The position numbers were made by a program, and so were the translations under genes. 39,093 nucleotides of DNA, from the sequence record KJ748011; one strand, written 5' to 3'. Source of the DNA: Escherichia phage PE3-1. The notes beneath the pieces were generated by a model. It was not told the origin of the DNA. It did not search any database and worked only from the letters and a program-made list of their open reading frames with translations. Each line of letters opens with the position of its first letter. Within the stretch, counting starts at the first letter, position 1. This document shows positions 9,755 through 39,052 of the stretch, one piece after another.

Positions 9755-10204
9755 ATGACGCTGAAAGAGAAACTGGAGGCTTACTCTAAGGTTTCTCCTT
9801 CGGGATGCTGGGAGTGGCAACGCTCCCGGACTAAAACTGGTTATGGTCAAATAGCTATAGGTCATCAGAAACAGGACTATTCTCACCGAGTTTCGTACAG
9901 GGAGTACAAAGGTCATATACCTGATGGATTGGTTGTTAGACATAAATGTGATAACCCTTGCTGCTGTAACCCTGAGCACCTTGAAGTTGGGACTCAGAAG
10001 GACAACATGCAGGACTGCGTGAAGCGGGGACGTCACTCGAAACCGCCAGTATTCGAAGGAGAAGCTAATCACAAGACTAAGCTGACCGAGGAAGACGTAG
10101 CGTTTATCCTGAAGTCCAAGCTGAGGCCTATAGAACTTGCTAAGATGTTTGGCGTTACTCCGCAAGCTATTAATTGGAGACGCAAGAATGGCAAGAACGA
10201 TTAG
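9755..10204 (+). CDS. HNH homing endonuclease
   Basis: 149 aa; GCWEW..GYG..HR.....G.IP.GLVVRHKCDNPCCCNPEHL..GTQKDN is a classic phage HNH signature; starts 1 nt after the SSB stop. Confidence 0.85.
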   Translation: MTLKEKLEAYSKVSPSGCWEWQRSRTKTGYGQIAIGHQKQDYSHRVSYREYKGHIPDGLVVRHKCDNPCCCNPEHLEVGTQKDNMQDCVKRGRHSKPPVFEGEANHKTKLTEEDVAFILKSKLRPIELAKMFGVTPQAINWRRKNGKND

Positions 10205-10637
10205 CCGAGGGCATCAAGTAGGAATATATAGGTCTGGACTAGAAGCAAAGAACCAAGAGTGGCTGGAGAAGAACGGAGTTAAGGCTGAGTACGAGATGTA
10301 TAGCATCAAGTACACAATACCAGAATCTCTTCACAGTTATTGTCCAGACTTTGTACTGCCCAACGGAATAATTGTGGAGACCAAAGGAATCTTCGCAGTG
10401 GAAGACCGCAAGAAGCACCTATTGATTAGAGAACAGCACCCAGAGTTAGACATTCGGTTCGTGTTCTCAAGTTCCCGCTCCAAGTTATACAAAGGGTCTC
10501 CGACCACGTATGGCGCATGGTGCGAAAAGAACGGCTTTAAGTTTGCCGACAAGTTTATCCCGGTTGAGTGGCTGAGAGAGGCGACTGTACGTCTGCCTTC
10601 TGGTATACTCATCCCCAAGAAGAAAGGAGTTAAGTGA
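10188..10637 (+). CDS. 3: Endonuclease I (Holliday junction resolvase, gp3)
   Basis: RSGLE, PDFVLPNGIIVETKG, RKKHLLIREQHPELDIRFVFSSSRSKLYKGSPTTYG..CEKNGFKFADK match T7 gp3; start moved to ATG 10188 (GGAG RBS), track ORF 10137 in same frame. Confidence 0.92.
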   Translation: MARTISRGHQVGIYRSGLEAKNQEWLEKNGVKAEYEMYSIKYTIPESLHSYCPDFVLPNGIIVETKGIFAVEDRKKHLLIREQHPELDIRFVFSSSRSKLYKGSPTTYGAWCEKNGFKFADKFIPVEWLREATVRLPSGILIPKKKGVK

Positions 10638-11107
10638 TGACTCAGAAATATAGACTTAAGACTGGATTCAACGGGTGGCCAGCAGGCACTATCGTTACGA
10701 AATGTTCGAAAGACCCTGTACCATCACCTGTAATGACTCTGGTGGAATCCTCCGAGAGGGGAATCTACAAACACGGAGCGGAAGGTTATAACACTCAGCC
10801 TGACGGTATGTGGGGAGCGTGGGTTATAAATAATCAGCTTGAGGAAATCTTAGAGGATAAACCGCAAGTCCTGCCAGCCTCAAGTGTCCCTCCTGTCACA
10901 GTTAAACGTGAAGTCCTGACCATCAACAAGATCGGTGTAGGTCAGACGTTCATCGTCCACGGTAAGCCTGACGAAGTGTACGTGAAGATTAGCAACTCTC
11001 ACGTCTTCAACCATAAGTTGCTCCAGATGCACACGACTGACGCACAGCGCTTCCAACGTCATCTGAACCTCGTAGCTGTAGAGCTGGTGGTGTACGATGG
11101 TGAGTAA
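10634..11107 (+). CDS. Hypothetical protein (157 aa) inserted between endonuclease I and lysozyme
   Basis: Clean ORF with AAAGGAG RBS and ATGA coupling to gene 3; no T7 counterpart at this position. Confidence 0.65.
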   Translation: MMTQKYRLKTGFNGWPAGTIVTKCSKDPVPSPVMTLVESSERGIYKHGAEGYNTQPDGMWGAWVINNQLEEILEDKPQVLPASSVPPVTVKREVLTINKIGVGQTFIVHGKPDEVYVKISNSHVFNHKLLQMHTTDAQRFQRHLNLVAVELVVYDGE

Positions 11108-11555
11108 GGTTCAGTTCAACCCACGGTCACGGACTGACGCTATCTTCGTTCACTGTTCGGCTACCAAGCCAGATATGGACATCGGGGTAGAGACAATCCG
11201 TATGTGGCACAAGCAGCAAGGCTGGCTGGACGTAGGCTACCACTTCGTCATCAAGCGTGATGGCACTGTGGAAGAAGGCCGCCCGGTCAATGTCGTAGGG
11301 TCACACGTTAAGGACTGGAACTCCCGGTCCGTAGGCGTCTGCCTTGTAGGTGGGATCAACGCTAATGGCAAGTTTGAAGCTAACTTCACTCCAGCCCAGA
11401 TGGACTCCCTGCGCATCAAGCTGGATGACCTGAAGGTCCTGTATCCTCAGGCAGAAATCAAAGCACACCATGACGTAGCACCTAAGGCCTGTCCAAGTTT
11501 TGACTTGCAACGCTGGTTGACTACCAACGAACTGGTCACTTCCGACCGTGGTTAA
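11097..11555 (+). CDS. 3.5: Lysozyme / N-acetylmuramoyl-L-alanine amidase (gp3.5)
   Basis: 152 aa; VQF..R..TDAIFVHCSATKP, WLDVGYHF.IKRDGTVE.GR, HH.VAPKACPSFDL.RW...NELVTSDRG match T7 lysozyme. Confidence 0.96.
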   Translation: MVSKVQFNPRSRTDAIFVHCSATKPDMDIGVETIRMWHKQQGWLDVGYHFVIKRDGTVEEGRPVNVVGSHVKDWNSRSVGVCLVGGINANGKFEANFTPAQMDSLRIKLDDLKVLYPQAEIKAHHDVAPKACPSFDLQRWLTTNELVTSDRG

Positions 11556-11579
11556 TAAACTCTAAAGGAGAACAACTTA

Positions 11580-11795
11580 ATGATTAAACTTATTGAATTT
11601 CTAGGTCGTCTGGTGGTGCGTGGTTATCGTCGTGCTGCGGTTCTGGAACGAAAGGTAGAAAAGAAGACTGCTGATGATGCGGCTGATGCTGCTGCTCTGG
11701 CTGACAAGCTGACCATCGCATCACTGGAAGCTGGCATGAAGGCTCGTCAGGCTGATACCAAAGCTAACCAGTTGGCTCAGTTCTTCAAAGACTAA
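11580..11795 (+). CDS. Hypothetical protein (71 aa), Ala/Lys-rich, predicted helical
   Basis: ORF with AAAGGAG RBS immediately after lysozyme. Confidence 0.55.
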   Translation: MIKLIEFLGRLVVRGYRRAAVLERKVEKKTADDAADAAALADKLTIASLEAGMKARQADTKANQLAQFFKD

Positions 11796-11813
11796 ACTAT
11801 CACCTTAGGGATG
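11792..11813 (+). promoter_or_regulatory. Phage RNAP promoter variant CTAAACTATCACCTTAGGGAT (phi3.8 position)
   Basis: Two substitutions in the -5 to -3 region; probably weak. Confidence 0.5.
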
Positions 11814-11863
11814 GGACCATGAGTCCTGTCCCTTTGTTCGCATTTATGATTAAGGAGTGACCA

Positions 11864-13692
<1,829 letters not shown>

Positions 13693-26178: not shown

Positions 26179-26649
26179 ATGTATATTCGCAAGGCTACGG
26201 AACCAGATGTCCACTACTTTCTGTGGCATCTTTCAGCAGATGATGTTAATGAGTGCAAAGCAAACTATGGGTCAACCGTTGGTCTCTCTGAAAGACTGCT
26301 TAAGCATTTATCCCCGTCATCTGTGGTTTTAACGAACGGTGTAGGCGAAGTGTTTGCCTATGGTGGAAACCAAGGTGATAACGTATGGTTCTTGACTTCC
26401 GGTCTTGTCTATAAGCTGAGACCTAAAGAGAAGCGAGAGTTCATAAAGCGTATCTCTGAGTACAGGGACTTAATGTTAGACCAATACGGGACCATCTGGA
26501 ACTACGTGTGGTCAGGCAATAAGTCTCACATTAAATTCTTGAAGTTGCTTGGGGCTAAGTTCCATGATGATTGGACTATCAGCCCAGTAACTGGTGAGCG
26601 TTTTCAACTATTCACTATCTCTAAGGAGGACGTATGTGTGAACCCGTAA
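26179..26649 (+). CDS. 13: gp13-position protein (internal virion/assembly protein by synteny)
   Basis: 156 aa ORF with AAGGAG RBS downstream of the promoter; assignment by position. Confidence 0.75.
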   Translation: MYIRKATEPDVHYFLWHLSADDVNECKANYGSTVGLSERLLKHLSPSSVVLTNGVGEVFAYGGNQGDNVWFLTSGLVYKLRPKEKREFIKRISEYRDLMLDQYGTIWNYVWSGNKSHIKFLKLLGAKFHDDWTISPVTGERFQLFTISKEDVCVNP

Positions 26650-27232: not shown

Positions 27233-29515
27233 ATGGCTAGTAATATTGAATCAGCTCTGGCTAATCGGACTATGGGTCGTGGCAGAGCGCCGGGTAAAAC
27301 TATCGCCGTCAACTATCAAGCAGCCAGCGTTCAGGCTCCAACTGGTGACTCAGGCCTGGCTCGGGCGTTAACCAACTTCGTTGAGTCTGGTACTGGACTA
27401 TACAAGCAGTTCAAGGACGATGAGAAGACCAGAGCTGACGACCGGTCTAACGAGATTATCCGTAAGCTGACACCTCAGCAAAGACGTGAGGCTATCCAGA
27501 ACGGCACATTGCTGTATCAGGATGACCCTTACGCTATGGAAGCACTTCGAGTAAAGACCGGTCGTAACGCTGCCTTTGCGGTGGATGACGAGATTAACGT
27601 TAAGATTCAGAACGGTGAGTTCCGCACACGTCAGGACATGGAAGAGTATCGCCACCAGCGACTTCAGGATGCCGCTAAGTCCTATGCTGAAGAGGCGGGC
27701 ATTAACCCTACCGATGAGTTCTTCCAGCGTGGGTTCAACGATAACATCACAGACCGCAACATCGCTATCTATGGATCTTTCAATAAGTATTTCAGCAAGC
27801 AGTCTGAAGAGACAGCAATGTTGAACACTCGTATTGAGATGAACTCGTTCCTTAACGATGGGGACCTGATGCGTTCGCCTGAGTCTGGAAAGACCTTCAT
27901 GGCCTATCTTCGGGATGGACTGACGACTGCTGCTATCCCTTCTGACCAGCGAGCACGAGAGGTAATTACCCAGACGGTCCGTGACGCAATCCAGAAGTCT
28001 GGCGGCTCAAACTTCCTACAGCAAGTACGAGGCGAGCGAATCACCCTTAACGGTGTGGACGCTACAGTCGAAGAGATTGTGGGACCTGATGTCTTCAACG
28101 CTGCTATTGTTGAGGCACAAGGAACTGAGTACAAGCTGGTGGCTAAGTATCAGGAAGACTTAGCGTTAGGCGTTCAGTCTGCGATTCTTCAGGATGACCC
28201 AACCATTGGTCTTGCCCAGATTCAGAAACTCAAGGAGCAGAACAACCTGCTTCAGTCTGGTGAAGAACTAACGCCTCAGCGTCAGATGCTTATTAATGCC
28301 GAAGCCAGCTTACTGGAAGCGGTCAAGCGTAAGTCCGCTGAACAGGCGAAGGAGAACACTAAGTTAATCCAGACCCAGAACAAGCAACTGGTCATAGACC
28401 AAGTTTATCAGCGACGTCTGGCTGGTGACAACGTGTCCACCAACTATGAGGACCTTCCGGTCTCTGAAGCTACAGGAGAGTTTAAGCGTTCAGACATGAA
28501 CAACTATGCGTCTGCCAAGCTACAGCAGATTGACCAGATGGACATCCCTGAGGCTGCTAAGGATGCTCAGAAGGTGGCATTGTTAAGAGCTGATACCAAC
28601 AATGGCCCATTCCGTAACGCCTTCCAGACTCTTACTCAGGATGCTGATGGTGAGTGGCAAGCTGCGGTCATCCGTGGACAGTACGACCCAGATAAGATGA
28701 AACGCTTCGAGTCTCTTCGTCGTGCCTACACTCAGGACCCTTCAAGTTTTGCTGCTCTGTATCCTGAGCAGGCCCAATTGTTCACGACTTTCGAGCAGAT
28801 GGACAAGATAGGTCTGGACCCTCAGACGCTGATTGAAGCTGATAAACAAGCTGCAAGTCAAAGCCGTGAGATGCGCATTGAGTCAGACAAGGCGTGGCAG
28901 GAGTTGAAGAACGACTCTCGGAATAAGGACCTTTCGCGTCTTCCAACGTCTCTGGACTCAACTGCTCGTAAGGTCTGGGACTCATGGTACTACAGGACAG
29001 GTAACGCTGACGGAGCCACTCAGCATACCCAGAAGTGGTTGAATGAAAACACCGTTACTTTCACCGATGATGGTCAGGATGGTAAGTCCATCGGCATGGT
29101 GTCCCATCATCAACTTATGGTCGGGGATGACCCTGAGTCTTGGAAGGTGGGTCGAGACATCATCGACATAGCTCGCAAGCAGCTCATTAAGGCCAACCCT
29201 TGGGTAGTGAACTCTCAGTTGTCCGTTGTTGAACAGAACGGCTCTATCTTCCTCCAAGACGCTACAGGGACTATTCGTATTCGATACGATAAAGAACTTG
29301 TAGGTAAACTCTACCGCGAACAACAGCAGAAGGCACAAGATGCCGCATACGCTCAGGCAGAACGTGACGCTAACAAGCGAGCGCGTATCGTCGGGACTAA
29401 AGCTGCTGGTGACAAACGTCGAGCTGACCAAGAGGCCAACATCGAGAAGCGCGGTGGGGTGTACAATGACGTCTCACTGGAGGGTATCGCAAACGTACTA
29501 ATTGGTAAGGAGTAA
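27233..29515 (+). CDS. 15: Internal virion (core) protein gp15
   Basis: 760 aa; size and synteny with T7 gp15. Confidence 0.9.
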   Translation: MASNIESALANRTMGRGRAPGKTIAVNYQAASVQAPTGDSGLARALTNFVESGTGLYKQFKDDEKTRADDRSNEIIRKLTPQQRREAIQNGTLLYQDDPYAMEALRVKTGRNAAFAVDDEINVKIQNGEFRTRQDMEEYRHQRLQDAAKSYAEEAGINPTDEFFQRGFNDNITDRNIAIYGSFNKYFSKQSEETAMLNTRIEMNSFLNDGDLMRSPESGKTFMAYLRDGLTTAAIPSDQRAREVITQTVRDAIQKSGGSNFLQQVRGERITLNGVDATVEEIVGPDVFNAAIVEAQGTEYKLVAKYQEDLALGVQSAILQDDPTIGLAQIQKLKEQNNLLQSGEELTPQRQMLINAEASLLEAVKRKSAEQAKENTKLIQTQNKQLVIDQVYQRRLAGDNVSTNYEDLPVSEATGEFKRSDMNNYASAKLQQIDQMDIPEAAKDAQKVALLRADTNNGPFRNAFQTLTQDADGEWQAAVIRGQYDPDKMKRFESLRRAYTQDPSSFAALYPEQAQLFTTFEQMDKIGLDPQTLIEADKQAASQSREMRIESDKAWQELKNDSRNKDLSRLPTSLDSTARKVWDSWYYRTGNADGATQHTQKWLNENTVTFTDDGQDGKSIGMVSHHQLMVGDDPESWKVGRDIIDIARKQLIKANPWVVNSQLSVVEQNGSIFLQDATGTIRIRYDKELVGKLYREQQQKAQDAAYAQAERDANKRARIVGTKAAGDKRRADQEANIEKRGGVYNDVSLEGIANVLIGKE

Positions 29516-29519
29516 CATA

Positions 29520-32500
29520 ATGGCGACTCGTGGTATTCGCAATAACAATCCGGGTAACATCCGGGTAAGTAAGGACCAATGGGAAGGAATGACTGGAGAT
29601 GATGGCGCATTCGTCACATTCGATAGTCCAGAGTCTGGCGTCCGAGCTTTAGGTAAAAACCTGCTGTCCTACGGTCGCCAAGGTTATGACTCCATCGAGA
29701 AGATTATCAACCGATGGGCACCTCCTAACGAGAACGACACTAAGGCTTATATTGACTCAGTGGTGGCTGCAACTGGTATTCCAGCTACCCAGAGTCTCGA
29801 CCTATCGGACCCTGACACCCTGTCTTCTCTGGCTCAAGCTATCAGCTTCCATGAGACAGGCTCCCGGTACGACCCTGAAGTCTATCAGAAGGGAGTCGCA
29901 CGAGCACTCAATGGCATTAGCCCAAAGACTCCACCAGTAAGCGCTAACGTATTTGACGCACTCACGGAAGGACTCAAGGCTAAACCTAAAGTAGCTCTTG
30001 GTGAGAACCTTCCGACCGCTGCTGGTCTGAACATTGAGGGTCAAGCACCTGAAGCTCCCAACGAATCGTTCGGTGAGATGTTCTATAAGTCTACTGGCGA
30101 GACCATGCAGGAACGAGAGGACCGCTCTACGTGGTTCGGTTTTGGTTCTGCTACAGAATCTGAAGTGAAGAACTCTATGGTCGGCGTGGCTATCCGCGCT
30201 GGTCAGACCGAGGACTCACTTGATGTCATTGGCGATGTGTTCAACCCGACCCGCTGGAACAACCATAAGTGGTCTCGTGAGGAGCTGGACCAGATTCGTA
30301 ACGCTGGAGTTCTTCCTCAGTATTACGGGGTCATTACTGGTGGCTCCCCTCAGAACCTGACCGAGCTTATTAACTTGGCGCTTGAGAACCAGAAGTTGGA
30401 CCAAGAGAAGGCCAAGGCCGGGATTGGTGCTCAGTTAGCTGCTGGTGTGATTGGTGCTGGTGTAGACCCGCTGACCTACGTTCCTATCGCTGGACAGGTT
30501 GGTAAAGGCGGTAAGCTGGTCAACAAGATGTTCACCGTGGCTGCTCAATCTGGAGCACTGGCTGGTGTGTCGGAGATGGCCCGTACCTCAGTGGCTGGTG
30601 GTGATGCTCATGTGGCTGAGGCTATCCTTGGCGGTGCTCTCTTCGGTGGCGGTATGACTGCTATCGCTGATGGTTTAGGCAGAGCCTTAGGTCGCAACAC
30701 TAATGAGTTTGCTGGTCCAGCTACACGTCTGGAAGCTCGTGAGACCGCTCGTAACGTTGATGGTCAGGACCTGTCTCGTCTCCCTATTCAGGAAGGTGAG
30801 CAGACCTTTAGTCATCAAGGCGTTAAGTTCGCTGACGTTCCGAACGAGCCGGGTAGTGTACGACTGGAAGATGGTTCAATCCTGATTGGTGAGAACCTTC
30901 TGAACCCTAAGACACGTCAAGTCTTTGACGAAGTGATTGAGCCTGAACGTGCCGCTGCGGGTGTGAACCTTGGTGGGCTAACTGAGATTGGCCTGAAGCT
31001 GCTTCGGTCTGAGAACCCTGAGATTCGTGGAGTCGCTGCGGACTTAGTGCGTTCACCGACTGGTATGCAGTCCGGTGCCTCAGGTAAAATCGGGACCACT
31101 GCGTCAGACGTATTCGAGAGACTTCGTGCTGTGGACCATCGGTTCTACAACGACATCGACGATGCGGTTACTGAGGCACTAAAGGACCCGTACTTCCAGA
31201 CAGCATTCTGGCGAGACTCTGGCGCATTCCGTCAGGACGTCTACCAGCGTGTGTCTATGGCTATCGAAGATGGTAGCGGAAACCTGAAGGCTGAACTGAC
31301 TCCGGGAGAACTGAAAGTCTATGACCTGCTGAAGAACCAGTTCGACGCCAAGCGTGAGATGATGGAGAACCCAGCGATGTTTGGTCGTCCAGACGCTCAG
31401 TCTATCTTTCCTGGTAGCCGCTTCAAGGGAACCTACGTCCCGCATGTGTATAGTAACCAGATGAAGGAGCTGTACATCAAGGAGCTTGGAAGTCCAGAGG
31501 CACTACAGGAGGCCATCAAGAAATCATGGTTGACCAGCTATGCGTCTCGACCTGAAGTCAAGAAACGTGTGGACGAGGCACTCTTAGAGTCTGACCCTAC
31601 GTTGACTCCAGAAGGACTTGCGGCTGCTGTCGATAAGTACGCCAACGATAAGGCTTACGGTATCTCTCACACCGAGAAGTTCGAACGCTCATCCGTAATG
31701 GAAGAGAATATCAACGGTCTGGTTGGTCTGGAGAACAACAGCTTCCTTGAGGCTCGTAACCTGTTCGATAGTGATATGTCAATCGTCCTGCCTAACGGTC
31801 AGACCTTCAGTGTCAACAACCTTCGTGAGTGGGACATGGACAAGATTGTCCCGGCCTACAACCGTCGAGTTAATGGCGATATTGCTATCATGGCTGGTAC
31901 AGGCAAAACCACGAAGGACATGAAGGACTTGGTTGAGACCATGATGAACAAGGCTGGGGATGACGGTAAGTTGAAAGGTGAAGTATCTACCTTACGTGAC
32001 ACCTTGAAGATTCTCACTGGTCGTGCTCGACGTGATGGTGCTGATGATGCAGCCTTCGCTACCGTGATGCGCACAATGACAGACCTATCGTTCTTCGCTA
32101 AGAATGCCTACATGGGTGTTCAGAACTTAACGGAGATTGGTGGTATGCTGGCTCGTGGTAACGTTCGTGCGCTGCTTCATGGAGTCCCGATGTTCCGTGA
32201 CCTAGCCTTCCGTAACAAGAAGGTAGGAGCCTCAGAGATTAAGGACCTTCACAATGTTCTCTTCGGTAAGGAACTTGATGACTCAATCCGTCCGTCTAAA
32301 CAGGATGTCATCGACCGTCTGCGGTCTTACAGTGACCTCGGTCGTGGTACGGCTACAGCTCTGGGGACTGCCAAGTATTACACTGGTGAACTTGCAGTAC
32401 GCTCTCCGTTCACTAAAGTCCTCAACGGTACGACCAACTACCTGTTAGATGCTGGACGTCAGGGATTCCTGTCTGACATCGTGGAGCATAGTCTGACTGG

Positions 32501-33407
32501 CAGTAAGCGTCGGTTCGATGACCGCTGGCTGAAGACCGCTGGTATCTCTGACGAGCAGTGGAAGGGCATTAAGTCCCTAATCCGTGAGTCAGTGACTCGT
32601 GGTCCAGACGGGAAGTACACCATCAAGGATAAGAAGGCGTTCAGTCAGGATCCAAGGGCTATGGACCTGTGGCGTATGGGTGACACCATCGCTGATGAAA
32701 CGTTACTACGACCTTATAAGCTGTCTAACATGGATGCCAAGGCTTATGGCCCTATCGCTAAGACTGTCCTTCAGTTTAAGAACTTCGTCATCAAGTCCAT
32801 CAATGGTCGAACCATGCGAACCTTCTATAACGCCACGAAGAACAACCGAGCGATGGACGCTGCACTGTCTACTGTGATGTCTATGGGTCTGTCTGGTATC
32901 TACTACATGGCTCAAGCTCACGTCAAGGCTTACGCTATGCAGGATGGTCGAGACCGTGAATACCTCAAGCAAGCTCTGGACCCGACGATGATTGGCTATG
33001 CGGCTCTGTCCCGTAGTTCACATCTGGGTGGACCACTTGGAGTCGCCAACATTCTTGGTGGTATCGCTGGGTATGAGGACACTAAGATGCTCCGTTCGTC
33101 TATCCTCCCTCGTTCACCTACAGAGAAGCCTGAACGTGCTTTCACATATGGTGCGTCTACAAGTGACCCTGTGATGAATATTGTTGGTAACTTCTTGGAG
33201 CAGGTTCCAGCTTTCGGATATGCTGCTAACGTTGGCGCTTCGGCTTACAACTTGGCTGGCTACCTAAAGGCTGATACTCGTGTCAACGAGCGTGACTACA
33301 TGACCGGGATGTATAATACGTTCCGTGAACTGGTTCCGAACGACCCAATTACCCAGAAGTTGCTGCTTGGAACGTTTGAGGAGCAAGGCATCCACATCAA
33401 GGACTAA
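29520..33407 (+). CDS. 16: Internal virion protein gp16 (ejectosome component) with a non-T7 N-terminal domain
   Basis: Central and C-terminal regions collinear with T7 gp16 (WFGFG, GVDPLTYVP, RSPTGMQSGASGK, ENPAMFG, RVNGDIAIM, GTTNYLLDA, RAMDLWR); start at ATG 29520 with AAGGAG RBS. Confidence 0.95.
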   Translation: MATRGIRNNNPGNIRVSKDQWEGMTGDDGAFVTFDSPESGVRALGKNLLSYGRQGYDSIEKIINRWAPPNENDTKAYIDSVVAATGIPATQSLDLSDPDTLSSLAQAISFHETGSRYDPEVYQKGVARALNGISPKTPPVSANVFDALTEGLKAKPKVALGENLPTAAGLNIEGQAPEAPNESFGEMFYKSTGETMQEREDRSTWFGFGSATESEVKNSMVGVAIRAGQTEDSLDVIGDVFNPTRWNNHKWSREELDQIRNAGVLPQYYGVITGGSPQNLTELINLALENQKLDQEKAKAGIGAQLAAGVIGAGVDPLTYVPIAGQVGKGGKLVNKMFTVAAQSGALAGVSEMARTSVAGGDAHVAEAILGGALFGGGMTAIADGLGRALGRNTNEFAGPATRLEARETARNVDGQDLSRLPIQEGEQTFSHQGVKFADVPNEPGSVRLEDGSILIGENLLNPKTRQVFDEVIEPERAAAGVNLGGLTEIGLKLLRSENPEIRGVAADLVRSPTGMQSGASGKIGTTASDVFERLRAVDHRFYNDIDDAVTEALKDPYFQTAFWRDSGAFRQDVYQRVSMAIEDGSGNLKAELTPGELKVYDLLKNQFDAKREMMENPAMFGRPDAQSIFPGSRFKGTYVPHVYSNQMKELYIKELGSPEALQEAIKKSWLTSYASRPEVKKRVDEALLESDPTLTPEGLAAAVDKYANDKAYGISHTEKFERSSVMEENINGLVGLENNSFLEARNLFDSDMSIVLPNGQTFSVNNLREWDMDKIVPAYNRRVNGDIAIMAGTGKTTKDMKDLVETMMNKAGDDGKLKGEVSTLRDTLKILTGRARRDGADDAAFATVMRTMTDLSFFAKNAYMGVQNLTEIGGMLARGNVRALLHGVPMFRDLAFRNKKVGASEIKDLHNVLFGKELDDSIRPSKQDVIDRLRSYSDLGRGTATALGTAKYYTGELAVRSPFTKVLNGTTNYLLDAGRQGFLSDIVEHSLTGSKRRFDDRWLKTAGISDEQWKGIKSLIRESVTRGPDGKYTIKDKKAFSQDPRAMDLWRMGDTIADETLLRPYKLSNMDAKAYGPIAKTVLQFKNFVIKSINGRTMRTFYNATKNNRAMDAALSTVMSMGLSGIYYMAQAHVKAYAMQDGRDREYLKQALDPTMIGYAALSRSSHLGGPLGVANILGGIAGYEDTKMLRSSILPRSPTEKPERAFTYGASTSDPVMNIVGNFLEQVPAFGYAANVGASAYNLAGYLKADTRVNERDYMTGMYNTFRELVPNDPITQKLLLGTFEEQGIHIKD

Positions 33408-33472: not shown

Positions 33473-35659
33473 ATGTCCACTATTACACAATTCCCTTCAG
33501 GAAACACTCAGTACAGGATTGAGTTCGACTACCTAGCCAGAACGTTCGTTGTTGTTACGCTGGTGAATAGCTCTAACCCTGCCATGAACCGTGTACTGGA
33601 AGTTGGTCGAGATTACCGATTCCTTAATCCAACGATGATTGAGATGTTGATTGACCAATCAGGTTTCGACATCGTTCGTATTCACCGTCAGACTGGAACT
33701 GACTTAGTGGTAGACTTCAGGAATGGCTCAGTGTTGACAGCTAGTGACCTGACCAATGCAGAGCTTCAGGCTATCCATATTGCAGAAGAAGGTCGAGACC
33801 AAACGGTTGACTTAGCTAAGGAATATGCCGATGCTGCTAGTAGCTCTGCTGGCAGCGCTAAGGATAGCGAGGACGAAGCACGACGAATCGCTGAGAATAT
33901 CAAGGCATCTGGTCTAATTGGCCATATTACCCGTCGCTCCTTCGAGAAAGGCTTCAACGTTACAACATGGAACGAGGTCCTGCTATGGGAAGAGGATGGT
34001 GATTATTACCGCTGGGATGGTACGCTTCCAAAGAACGTTCCTGCTGGTTCAACTCCTGAAACTTCCGGTGGTATTGGGCTGGGCGCGTGGGTTAGTGTTG
34101 GGGACGCGTCATTAAGAAGCGCACTTAAAACAAATAATGGTTCCAATTTAGTTGGGACTAATAACGGATTAACTGTTCAACAACGATTAAATTTAGACCG
34201 CGCAGACATCTCTAATTACGGGTATGTTTATGGTAGTGGTGCTGATGGTAAAGACGCGGTGCTATCAGCCGTATCGGACCACGGGTACGCACACGTAACT
34301 GGCGCCACGACATTATCGAGTTTTGATTGGCCTGAAGGAGCCAGATTGACAGGAAAGGCCACCATCACATACACAAGGCTACCAAACGTTCCATGTGAAC
34401 TTGATAGTGAAATACCTGTAGACCATTCACTGATGAAGGCTGTATACGTTCATCGCGTGTTTGATATTTGTGACATGTTACAACTAAAAACCGCCGGGTT
34501 TAATACGCTAATTCACTACGGTCAAGCGTGGACAAACGGTGGGAATATGGAAAAGGCCTGTAACGCCGCAGAAGCTGTTGGGCTTAAACTTATACTTGGT
34601 GGGCCAGTATACGGGCAGACAAACACTCCGGCTACAGACCTTGACAGCAGAGATTGCGTTATCGGCTATTACTTGTTTGATGAACCGCAAAATAATTCAG
34701 TAAGCAGAGCAGTGCAAGAAACGCGCATCTCGGCATTTAAATCATTCACAGAAAAATCATTATGCATAGCTGAAAATGGTATTTTTGGGTTTGACTCAAA
34801 TACACACCCGAACGGTTATGGTGGTACTGGATATGATATTATATTTGCAGACGCGTATTACCATGATGACTGGGATGATGCCCGGAATAAGCGACAGGCT
34901 GTTATTGGGTGGGGGGAACTGAAGTATAAATGTCCCACATCAAGAATTGTACCTTGTGTTGGATTGTTTACAACTGACGCAAATGGTGGTTCTGACAACT
35001 TCAAAAACAAAGCAAAACAGATAGCTTTCGCTAAGAAGTTTTTTAACATGGGTGACGGTGAGTATGCGGCGTTCTCGTGGGAGACACAACTCATCGTAAA
35101 CACACACAACACATTGACCACCGATACTGATTTGTATGCTTTAGGGAAAGAATTAAATTCTGCACCTAGACAAAAACCTTATGACATAGATGTGTATGCA
35201 TTTTACCCGGATAGAATGGGTGGAGCTATGCAGTTGTACAATGACAAGTACAGTTCTGCCGATGTCACACCATTCCAGACTATCAATACCGGGAGCGTAC
35301 AAGGTGAGCGTAACACTACATTTAAACAGGGTGGTATTGCGGCAAGAAACACTGGCGGTGTGTTTGCTACGAGGATGAAGAACCACGGCTACATAGCCTT
35401 TGAGCTGTATTATTTTAATGGGGCAGATTCTGCGAATACTTCAGCAGCAATAACAACATGTACTGATGACTTCTACACTAATACAGAGCAATTAACATTC
35501 ACGTACAATAATTCAAATAACGCGTGGATTAAGTCTGTTGAAACAGCTCCCAATTTGGGTGTTGGTATAAAGCTTGTTCCTTCGGCGTCGTACAACATGC
35601 GGTGGAAGATGGTGCGCGGAGGGATTATCGATTGCTCGTGGAGGGGAGAGGAGATATAG
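33473..35659 (+). CDS. 17: Tail fiber / receptor-binding protein: T7 gp17-like N-terminal anchor fused to a distinct C-terminal domain (possible glycan depolymerase)
   Basis: First ~150 aa parallel T7 gp17 (FDYLARTFVVVTLV, RDYRF, DFRNGSVLTASDLTNAELQAIHIAEEGRD); the remaining ~570 aa have no T7 similarity and sit in visibly AT-richer DNA. Confidence 0.9.
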   Translation: MSTITQFPSGNTQYRIEFDYLARTFVVVTLVNSSNPAMNRVLEVGRDYRFLNPTMIEMLIDQSGFDIVRIHRQTGTDLVVDFRNGSVLTASDLTNAELQAIHIAEEGRDQTVDLAKEYADAASSSAGSAKDSEDEARRIAENIKASGLIGHITRRSFEKGFNVTTWNEVLLWEEDGDYYRWDGTLPKNVPAGSTPETSGGIGLGAWVSVGDASLRSALKTNNGSNLVGTNNGLTVQQRLNLDRADISNYGYVYGSGADGKDAVLSAVSDHGYAHVTGATTLSSFDWPEGARLTGKATITYTRLPNVPCELDSEIPVDHSLMKAVYVHRVFDICDMLQLKTAGFNTLIHYGQAWTNGGNMEKACNAAEAVGLKLILGGPVYGQTNTPATDLDSRDCVIGYYLFDEPQNNSVSRAVQETRISAFKSFTEKSLCIAENGIFGFDSNTHPNGYGGTGYDIIFADAYYHDDWDDARNKRQAVIGWGELKYKCPTSRIVPCVGLFTTDANGGSDNFKNKAKQIAFAKKFFNMGDGEYAAFSWETQLIVNTHNTLTTDTDLYALGKELNSAPRQKPYDIDVYAFYPDRMGGAMQLYNDKYSSADVTPFQTINTGSVQGERNTTFKQGGIAARNTGGVFATRMKNHGYIAFELYYFNGADSANTSAAITTCTDDFYTNTEQLTFTYNNSNNAWIKSVETAPNLGVGIKLVPSASYNMRWKMVRGGIIDCSWRGEEI

Positions 35660-35730
35660 ACTAACTACACGCTGACTAGCGTATGTAACAACTTTGGGTC
35701 ACGGACGACCCGCTTTAAACTGGAGGTTTT

Positions 35731-38509: not shown

Positions 38510-39052
38510 ATGAGTAAACAGAAGGCCATCGACAGGGTGGCCCTCTTTAATCACTATGCTTATGTAGATGGTGAGTTGGTGTGTAGGAAACCTTATAAAG
38601 GATCTCGCAAGAAGCCCGGTGAGGTAATGGGACATTCAGTTCATCCGTCTGGGTACGCAATCGTGAAGGTTCTTGGCAGTCGGTATAGACGTGCCAGAAT
38701 CATCTACAGCCTAGTCGTTGGTCGAATACCTTCTGGCATGATGGTTGACCATATCAATGGTGATAGACTTGATGACAGGCCGGATAACTACAGGTTAGTA
38801 ACAGCATTAGAGAACCGATGGAACTCAGGAGGTGGCGATACTAATGGTCTACCCAAAGGTATCAGCTTTTTCAAGCCTACCGGAAAGTATCGCGCTCAGT
38901 TGCGCCTAAAAGGTAAGTGCTTCACGAAGACCTCAGATTCCATAGAGGAACTAGAGGTGTGGCTTGATGCTTTACGCACTGAGAAGCACAAGGAATACGC
39001 AGTAAACCGACGGTCCCCTAAGCGTGATAGGACCCATAGAAACCACAAGTAA
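38510..39052 (+). CDS. HNH homing endonuclease with AP2-type DNA-binding domain (second HNH-AP2 copy)
   Basis: 180 aa; GMMVDHINGDRLDDRPDNYRLVTALEN plus AP2-like GKYRAQLRLKGKCFTKTSDSIEELEVWLDALR; strong GGAGGAGG RBS. Confidence 0.88.
   Translation: MSKQKAIDRVALFNHYAYVDGELVCRKPYKGSRKKPGEVMGHSVHPSGYAIVKVLGSRYRRARIIYSLVVGRIPSGMMVDHINGDRLDDRPDNYRLVTALENRWNSGGGDTNGLPKGISFFKPTGKYRAQLRLKGKCFTKTSDSIEELEVWLDALRTEKHKEYAVNRRSPKRDRTHRNHK

Follow-up and report, generated by a model that had tools for sequence, protein, structure and literature searches.

The tail spike gene gp17 of Escherichia phage PE3-1 is a mosaic, and its product is very probably a tailspike in which the anchor of the phage's own lineage carries an exchanged, putative receptor-destroying TIM-barrel module. 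We analyzed the gene in a window of 39,093 nucleotides (the whole stretch of DNA considered here), where it is the sole long plus-strand ORF at its position (Table 1). Residues 1 to 216 would be the docking module native to the Kayfunavirus lineage, made of a T7 gp17-type N-terminal domain and Tail_spike_N. In residues 217 to 728, a receptor-destroying module acquired by horizontal exchange would have replaced the K1F endosialidase; the left crossover would have taken place at a conserved joint motif and the right one just before the ORF ends. The module is predicted to comprise a short neck, a (beta/alpha)8 barrel akin to clan GH-A, and a C-terminal beta-sandwich. Its most likely function is to bind a polysaccharide on the host surface and cut it endolytically, whereby the virion would reach the outer membrane and the host range would be set. 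The original prediction, which read the gene as a chimeric spike with a conserved anchor and an acquired AT-rich TIM-barrel glycosidase acting as a putative host-range depolymerase, is supported computationally and by a characterized homolog. Tailspike enzymatic modules determine phage host range, and tailspike depolymerases are sought for serotype-specific typing, anti-virulence use, and glycoconjugate production.

The protein is 100% identical to the product of a JSS1 CDS (AOZ65186.1) named "hypothetical protein," and the first 25 kb of the window match JSS1 (record KX689784.2, Kayfunavirus PE31) at 100%. In NCBI and UniProt, the PE3-1 protein is named "lyase." Our analysis puts right both of these uninformative or misleading annotations.

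Homology breakpoints, base composition, and mobility

The front end of gp17 is built for docking on a T7-type tail. PF03906 (T7 tail-fiber N domain), whose role is docking on the gp11/gp12 tail, was found at residues 10 to 120 (E value, 7e-16; 58.7 bits against a cutoff of 25.2). In a PDB sequence search, T7 gp17 chains (7boz_a, 553 residues) aligned to residues 6 to 115 only; nothing past residue 115 was matched by T7 gp17, and a T7-like shaft and C-terminal tip are absent. Because the match to T7 gp17 is confined to this segment, gp17 is, judging from these alignments, a tailspike with a T7-type anchor rather than a T7-type fiber. PDB entry 9vvr_A aligned to residues 1 to 226, with near-identity up to about residue 216. 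Thus, of the proposed anchor of about 150 residues lacking the T7 shaft and tip downstream, the T7-type docking part and the missing shaft and tip are real, and the true limit of the anchor lies at residue 216.

We set the breakpoints by blastn of the window against K1F and by pairwise alignments. K1F homology was 94% up to the left junction and 97% from the right junction onward, where the K1F counterpart lies 53 nt past the K1F gp17 stop codon. The cassette between the junctions stands where K1F has 2,600 nt, comprising part of the endosialidase gene and its 3' flank, and no similarity between the two was detectable by blastn or pairwise alignment. The right junction is followed by K1F-like intergenic sequence and then by the holin gene (35731). 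Among 160 phage records sharing DNA, JSS1 alone covered the gp17 gene over its full length; the other DNA matches listed, mostly from K1F-type endosialidase phages, covered only about nt 1 to 650 of the gene at 94 to 96%, and megablast of nt 1 to 647 against K1F-type phages gave 95 to 96% identity. The AT-rich part had been placed from about 34100 onward, which agrees with the homology break at 34119/34120; the start of 33920 given for the feature as a whole precedes the true junction by 200 nt.

Table 1. Features of the gp17 gene and its cassette, in window coordinates
Feature	Position	Strand	Residues or extent	Basis or remark
gp17 tail spike gene	33473..35659	+	728 aa	ORF list; stop codon 35657-35659
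T7 gp17-type N-terminal tail-attachment domain with short Ala/Ser/Asp/Glu-rich helical stretch	33473..33922	+	aa 1-150	
Tail_spike_N domain (PF18668)	33935..34105	+	aa 155-211	Pfam E value, 5.8e-20; part of the K1F-like front end
Left recombination junction	34119..34120	+	after ...GDASLRS	blastn match to K1F ends at 34119
Foreign AT-rich cassette	34120..35649	+	1530 nt	blastn breakpoints; GC 0.436, GC3 0.40
Joint motif and small alpha/beta neck	34121..34432	+	aa 217-320	AlphaFold2 secondary structure
Predicted (beta/alpha)8 TIM-barrel, putative catalytic domain	34436..35158	+	aa 322-562	clan GH-A-like fold
D403-E404-P405, proposed catalytic Asp-Glu pair	34679..34687	+	end of beta4	conservation; alignment to GUS N412-E413-P414
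C-terminal all-beta (jelly-roll/CBM-like) domain	35186..35635	+	aa 572-721	AlphaFold2, strands only
Right recombination junction	35649..35650	+	10 nt before the stop codon	blastn match resumes at 35650

The cassette is also the GC minimum of the whole window. From 34120 to 35659, GC content was 0.436, compared with a mean of 0.500 (SD, 0.019) for all 1,540-nt windows; only 0.2% of these were as low, every one overlapping the cassette. GC3 of the cassette was 0.400, against 0.543 ± 0.043 (minimum, 0.478) in the other genes of at least 150 aa, and no 510-codon stretch of the other long genes fell below 0.49. The N-terminal 647 nt of the gp17 gene had a GC content of 0.485. Both measures are in keeping with the visible AT-richness originally pointed out, for which the string AAAACAAATAATGGTTCCAATTTAG, located at 34127, was the example. 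It is very unlikely that this composition merely reflects the amino acid content of the domain or local selection in a gene ancestral to the lineage. GC1 of the cassette is lowered too (0.47 versus approximately 0.57), so amino acid composition contributes, and other parts of the window, namely the early region (1-1550) and a gene at 26179-26649, are also somewhat AT-rich. However, synonymous third positions are the most strongly affected (GC3, 0.40 versus 0.54), the drop coincides with the points where homology to more than 150 related phages breaks off, and the low-GC module recurs in unrelated phage backbones. The homologous module of an E. coli O156:H25 prophage has a GC content of 0.38 to 0.44 and the adjoining acyltransferase gene one of 0.29 to 0.36. 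Since this copy is AT-rich too, low GC appears, from sequence comparison, to be a property of the module lineage. AT-richness is common in serotype-related genes.

That tailspike heads are exchanged as modules is textbook knowledge, and the module studied here was found joined to anchors of 116, 128, 166 to 221, 257, 359, and approximately 390 residues, always at the same joint. The joint motif, L-x4-G-x3-G..G-x-TVQ (approximately residue 217 in JSS1), is the start of the module behind all other anchor architectures, which included P22 head-binding (PF09008), Tail_spike_N alone, tail-collar fiber N (PF12571), and unclassified types. The relative with the highest identity (88%) is encoded on a 43-kb contig together with NinX, SSB, AAA_24, and DUF3799 genes and therefore in a different phage backbone. 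Nine of 5,426 complete E. coli genomes contained the module. In the two E. coli loci inspected, it was the tailspike of a temperate podophage prophage with an acyltransferase gene directly 3', followed in one of them by an integrase. One of the two lysogens is O156:H25, and its chromosomal homolog is the nearest to the gp17 module. Such a pairing of tailspike and acyltransferase is the arrangement classically seen in O-antigen-specific, seroconverting phages. Horizontal acquisition, suggested originally from AT-richness, is favored by the homology breakpoints, the low GC3, and the presence of the module in unrelated backbones.

Predicted fold and family of the module

Characterized tailspike enzymatic modules are nearly all beta-helices or beta-propellers. 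An AlphaFold2 model of the gp17 module (residues 217 to 728), built with 39 homologs, had a pLDDT of 91.9 and a pTM of 0.88 and was divided into three parts, with eight alternating beta/alpha units at residues ∼322 to 562. The segments LIHYGQAW, GLKLILGG, and YYLFDEP, which had been read as reminiscent of TIM-barrel glycoside hydrolases, are all present and correspond to strands beta2 (residues 346 to 353), beta3 (residues 370 to 377), and beta4 (residues 399 to 405; nt 34667-34687). The predicted fold conforms to that reading, being a (beta/alpha)8 barrel similar to those of clan GH-A. For the C-terminal all-beta domain, Foldseek matches were GH5-CBM6 (CtXyl5A), CBM6E, and the beta-sandwich domains of GH35 and GH2 enzymes. 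In BFVD, strong structural matches were limited to the identical PE3-1 protein, the Aci07 depolymerase (E value, 4e-34; TMq, 0.80), and another two viral proteins. A Klebsiella K2-2 tailspike (8iq5/8iqe) was considered as a TIM-barrel precedent and rejected; it is published as a beta-helix, so the Foldseek match is peripheral.

The neck bears a faint likeness to the N-terminal ∼65 residues of the pectate-lyase-like beta-helix that ordinary tailspikes have. In this region, the family profile matched CBA120 TSP3 6nw9 and 5w6f (E value, 7e-4) and 7xy1 (E value, 1e-3). A Pfam scan of ten representatives of the family included member P0062, in which residues 206 to 261 resembled positions 5 to 70 of PF12708 with an E value of 2e-4, below Pfam's cutoff. 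Because of this faint beta-helix N-cap signature, the comparison suggests that the barrel was grafted behind a conserved tailspike neck.

Beyond residue 211 of gp17, no Pfam domain was found; the PHROG and PDB sequence matches were all N-terminal, none reaching the barrel, and querying Pfam, PHROGs, NCBIfam, and PDB directly with the C-terminal part gave no match. Residues 217 to 728 had 62 relatives among 5.8 billion proteins. An exhaustive phmmer search returned only 122 relatives from 1.84 billion cluster representatives, and the family is thus small. Its ∼120 cluster representatives have no Pfam, NCBIfam, or PHROG model. By tblastn against 50,697 phage genomes, we found, beyond JSS1, only remote relatives, in Vibrio phage PWH3a-P1, Escherichia virus TH27, Dickeya phage Monomax, and five Acinetobacter phages (Bestia, IME284, APK26, AB3P2, and Aci07).

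The Acinetobacter relatives include a characterized enzyme. The family profile matched APK26 gp48 over 531 columns spanning neck, barrel, and sandwich (hhalign probability, 100%; E value, 2e-43), and the relation between the gp17 module and the Acinetobacter TIM-barrel depolymerases is one of homology, not just analogy. APK26 gp48 is described as a K26 capsule depolymerase (Kasimova et al. 2021, as cited in PMC11126041). Among 313 A. baumannii fiber and spike proteins, a TIM-barrel "(trans)glycosidase" domain occurs only in those of Aci07, Bestia, AB3P2, and APK26, and all four phages show depolymerase activity (PMC11823257). TIM-barrel tailspike depolymerases are thus a known but rare kind, to which the JSS1 protein belongs as a so far unannotated representative from an enterobacterial phage; the rare family is thereby extended from Acinetobacter to phages and prophages of E. 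coli and Salmonella.

Active-site residues and candidate mechanism

We placed the active-site residues by strand order and by an alignment of 113 family members, in which identity fell to ∼20%. Four residues (G342, E404, Q415, and D455) were invariant, and D403, P405, K428, Y462 (112/113), and W536 (107/113) were nearly so. Within the D-E-P motif at the end of beta4, E404 was present in all 113 members, D403 in 112 (the remaining one having Glu), and P405 in 109. The family profile matched E. coli beta-glucuronidase (GUS) weakly (hmmsearch E value, 0.018; hhalign E value, 6e-5, probability, 64%), in an alignment that spans beta4 to beta6 only and ends before the GUS nucleophile E504. It pairs D403-E404-P405 with N412-E413-P414, D460 with N466, and Y462 with Y468 of GUS, and E413 is the established acid/base of that enzyme.

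Several hallmarks of clan GH-A are found in the module. The acid/base Glu at the C-terminal end of beta4 is present (E404), with the preceding Asn being Asp here, as are the Tyr on beta6 and the Trp on beta8 of the −1 subsite (Y462 and W536). The nucleophile Glu of beta7 is missing: no acidic residue occurs at or after the end of this strand in the 113 members. In gp17, beta7 is RIVPCVGLF (residues 491 to 499), and the expected nucleophile position is Gly497, which is Gly in 82 members and Ser in 14. The barrel is therefore GH-A-like in its modeled fold and lacks the nucleophile of the clan. APK26 gp48 retains D-E-P, Q, D...D-x-Y, an acid-less beta7 (IPTIGAY), and Y-D on beta8.

Under the mechanism that we propose, E404 would act as the general acid/base, and Y462 and W536 would shape the −1 subsite, as in GH-A. 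Because beta7 carries no carboxylate and the Asn of GH-A is a nearly invariant Asp, the second catalytic function is likely to be noncanonical. It could be provided by the substrate's own 2-acetamido group, polarized by D403 in the style of GH20 and GH18, or by a carboxylate elsewhere, with E434, D460, and E537 as candidates. E434, at the end of beta5, is acidic in 85% of members and lies in a context (CIAENG) that resembles the GH-A nucleophile motif; position 460 is Asp in 76% and Asn in another 15%; and E537, which follows W536, is acidic in 86%. About six members have no carboxylate at any of these three positions, yet the D-E pair is kept. Acidic pairs are known from substrate-assisted hexosaminidases, being Asp-Glu in GH20 and GH123, Asp-Asp in GH84, and D-x-E in GH18; GH135 Sph3 also has an Asp-Glu pair. 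Substrate-assisted catalysis is our leading mechanistic reading, a putative and unproven one.

Strand beta7 could be taken to mean that the barrel has lost the GH-A nucleophile and with it catalysis, leaving a degenerate carbohydrate-binding scaffold (a pseudoenzyme) that serves as a lectin-like receptor-binding domain. The acid-less beta7 in 113 of 113 members, with Gly or Ser at position 497 in 96, is what such a loss would look like. We nevertheless consider it improbable: E404 is invariant and D403 and Y462 are kept in 112 of 113 members over ∼80% sequence divergence, as is usual in functional active sites; beta7 of APK26 gp48 likewise lacks an acidic residue, and yet this protein is an active depolymerase; and the phages with Acinetobacter homologs show depolymerase activity. 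Retaining an active enzyme as the preferred reading, we offer more tentatively, as a possibility that we would not yet bet on, that these proteins form an undescribed glycoside hydrolase family derived from GH-A, in which the beta7 nucleophile was lost, N-E-P became D-E-P, the enzyme works on repeat units of O antigen or capsule as a substrate-assisted (2-acetamido) or other non-Koshland endo-glycosidase, and a remnant of the beta-helix N-cap persists. If true, this would document a transition from GH-A to substrate assistance inside a phage receptor-destroying enzyme. The active site of gp17 flags a possibly noncanonical catalytic mechanism, and the D-E pair without a beta7 nucleophile, in a protein that no curated family model covers, gives it some additional interest.

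Candidate substrate and comparison with known systems

As the substrate, an O antigen is more probable than a capsule. The E. coli homologs are tailspikes of P22-like or other temperate podophage prophages beside acyltransferase genes, and their rarity (9/5,426 E. coli genomes) fits a serotype-restricted receptor. These observations argue against a capsule (K antigen) or a shared envelope glycan such as ECA, which we regard as a serious but less probable candidate. In its favor, the characterized family member acts on a capsule, that of A. baumannii K26, and the module stands in place of a capsule-specific endosialidase. Moreover, JSS1 is reported on two host genera: its GenBank host entry is E. 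coli O153, and published work used Cerro 87 for propagation. Cerro 87 is a Salmonella enterica serovar Cerro strain, and its O antigen is not known to be related to that of E. coli O153. The O153 repeat unit has been given as Hex2HexNAc2Pent1, without uronic acid, and pyruvylated Gal is present in the O156 O antigen; comparing the O153 composition with the O156 pyruvylated Gal identified no glycan common to E. coli O153, O156, and S. Cerro (O18). That the module is a polysaccharide lyase, cleaving a uronic-acid-containing capsule by beta-elimination, is what the database name of the PE3-1 protein would imply, and the neck has a faint pectate-lyase-like N-cap signature. Yet no lyase was among the structural matches to the catalytic domain, and the lack of uronic acid in the O153 repeat unit speaks against the label; we think a lyase highly improbable.

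Compared with K1F gp17 (the endosialidase endoNF) and the gp17 proteins of other Kayfunavirus phages, likeness is confined to the first 216 residues (95 to 96% DNA identity), together with a common gene slot between gp16 and holin and common flanking DNA. K1F gp17 then has a beta-propeller sialidase, a stalk, and a C-terminal chaperone domain, whereas gp17 here has the TIM-barrel module. The protein is a clean natural junction of a K1F-type anchor with a predicted TIM-barrel glycosidase, and its exact junctions could guide host-range engineering of Kayfunavirus. With the P22-type beta-helix tailspikes (P22, Sf6, HK620, and the CBA120 TSPs), gp17 shares the modular build of an anchor and an enzymatic receptor-destroying domain, and some homologs of the module have the P22 head-binding domain (PF09008) and sit in the P22 tailspike slot. 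The catalytic domain of the P22 type, however, is a right-handed parallel beta-helix, and that of gp17 is modeled as a barrel.

Among enzymes, those of clan GH-A (GH2 beta-glucuronidase, GH5, GH42, GH164, GH35, and GH113) are related to gp17 at ∼10% sequence identity, and none of the Pfam GH models was matched by gp17. The clan has a Glu nucleophile on beta7 and N-E-P, whereas gp17 has Gly497 and the conserved D-E-P. The substrate-assisted TIM-barrel hexosaminidases, in turn, share with gp17 an acidic pair ending beta4, the lack of an enzyme nucleophile on beta7, and a Tyr with aromatic residues around the −1 site. This likeness is one of mechanistic pattern and not of membership, none of the GH20, GH18, GH84, GH123, or GH135-type families being among the sequence matches or the top-ranking structural matches listed. 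The nearest counterparts are the Acinetobacter depolymerases. APK26 gp48, Aci07, Bestia gp53, and AB3P2 have the same three-part module of neck, (beta/alpha)8 barrel, and beta-sandwich, and they resemble gp17 in D-E-P, Q, D...D-x-Y, an acid-less beta7, an aromatic-Asp beta8, and a C-terminal location in the tailspike. They differ from it in their low identity (14 to 29%), their host genus, their glycan (K26 and other capsules), and their anchors, which are of Friunavirus or myovirus type, unlike that of gp17.

Neck of the gp17 module

The neck that precedes the TIM barrel in gp17 (aa 217-320; window 34121-34432) is weakly similar to the pectate-lyase-like beta-helix of classical tailspikes. 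The part of the helix involved is its N-terminal cap together with the first rung, and the matches were CBA120 TSP3 and 7xy1. In another member of the module family (P0062), aa 206 to 261 showed weak similarity to positions 5 to 70 of PF12708. These sequence matches hint that the TIM barrel was grafted onto the neck of a beta-helix tailspike.

Module relatives and host records

The closest relative of the module was found on a Logan contig (L007), where its anchor is only 128 aa long and of the Tail_spike_N type. This genome, in which genes for NinX, SSB, AAA_24, and DUF3799 accompany the module relative, is a phage backbone of a different kind, possibly siphovirus-like. In both of the Escherichia coli prophages inspected (L004 and L005), the gene for the homologous tailspike was directly followed by an acyltransferase gene on the opposite strand. 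The acyltransferase gene is very AT-rich (GC, 0.29 to 0.36 in L004), and its product is probably an O-antigen acetylase serving seroconversion.

The host records for phage JSS1 disagree: GenBank gives E. coli O153, whereas strain Cerro 87 was used to propagate the phage in published work. The chromosomal homologue nearest to the module was in an O156:H25 STEC strain. No glycan common to E. coli O153, Cerro 87, and the O156:H25 strain was identified.

Locations of features in the window and in related loci
Feature	Location	Strand	Remark
Tailspike-acyltransferase locus	L004 13402-14520		E. coli prophage
Tailspike-acyltransferase locus	L005 10645-12189		E. coli prophage
Closest module relative	L007 (Logan SRR17032148 contig, 43 kb), gene 10001-11923		88% aa identity
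157-aa gene	window 26179-26649	+	GC 0.439; between tail-tube gene and internal virion protein genes
gp16	window 29502-33407	+	ORF finder; internal virion protein with lytic transglycosylase domain
180-aa ORF	window 38510-39052	+	JSS1 annotation, HNH homing endonuclease

Other genes and AT-rich stretches

Besides the gp17 cassette, two further stretches of the window are AT-rich: the 157-aa gene and positions 1-1550. GC content in the initial 1.5 kb (0.451) was the second lowest among 1,540-nt windows. Immediately behind the gene for the large terminase comes the 180-aa ORF, whose GC content of 0.473 is slightly below the window mean. For gp16, oddly labeled "endo-type membrane-bound chitopentaose" in JSS1, the ORF finder chose a TTG start at 29502; from an in-frame ATG at 29520, the ORF is 3,888 nt, equal in length to the annotated gp16 of JSS1 and K1F.

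Right junction of the gp17 cassette

At the start of the stretch at window 35650-35730, the right recombination junction lies 10 nt ahead of the gp17 stop codon. The matching K1F DNA is located 53 nt beyond the stop codon of K1F gp17. Thus, the final codons of gp17 (…EEI*) and its stop codon correspond to intergenic sequence of K1F.
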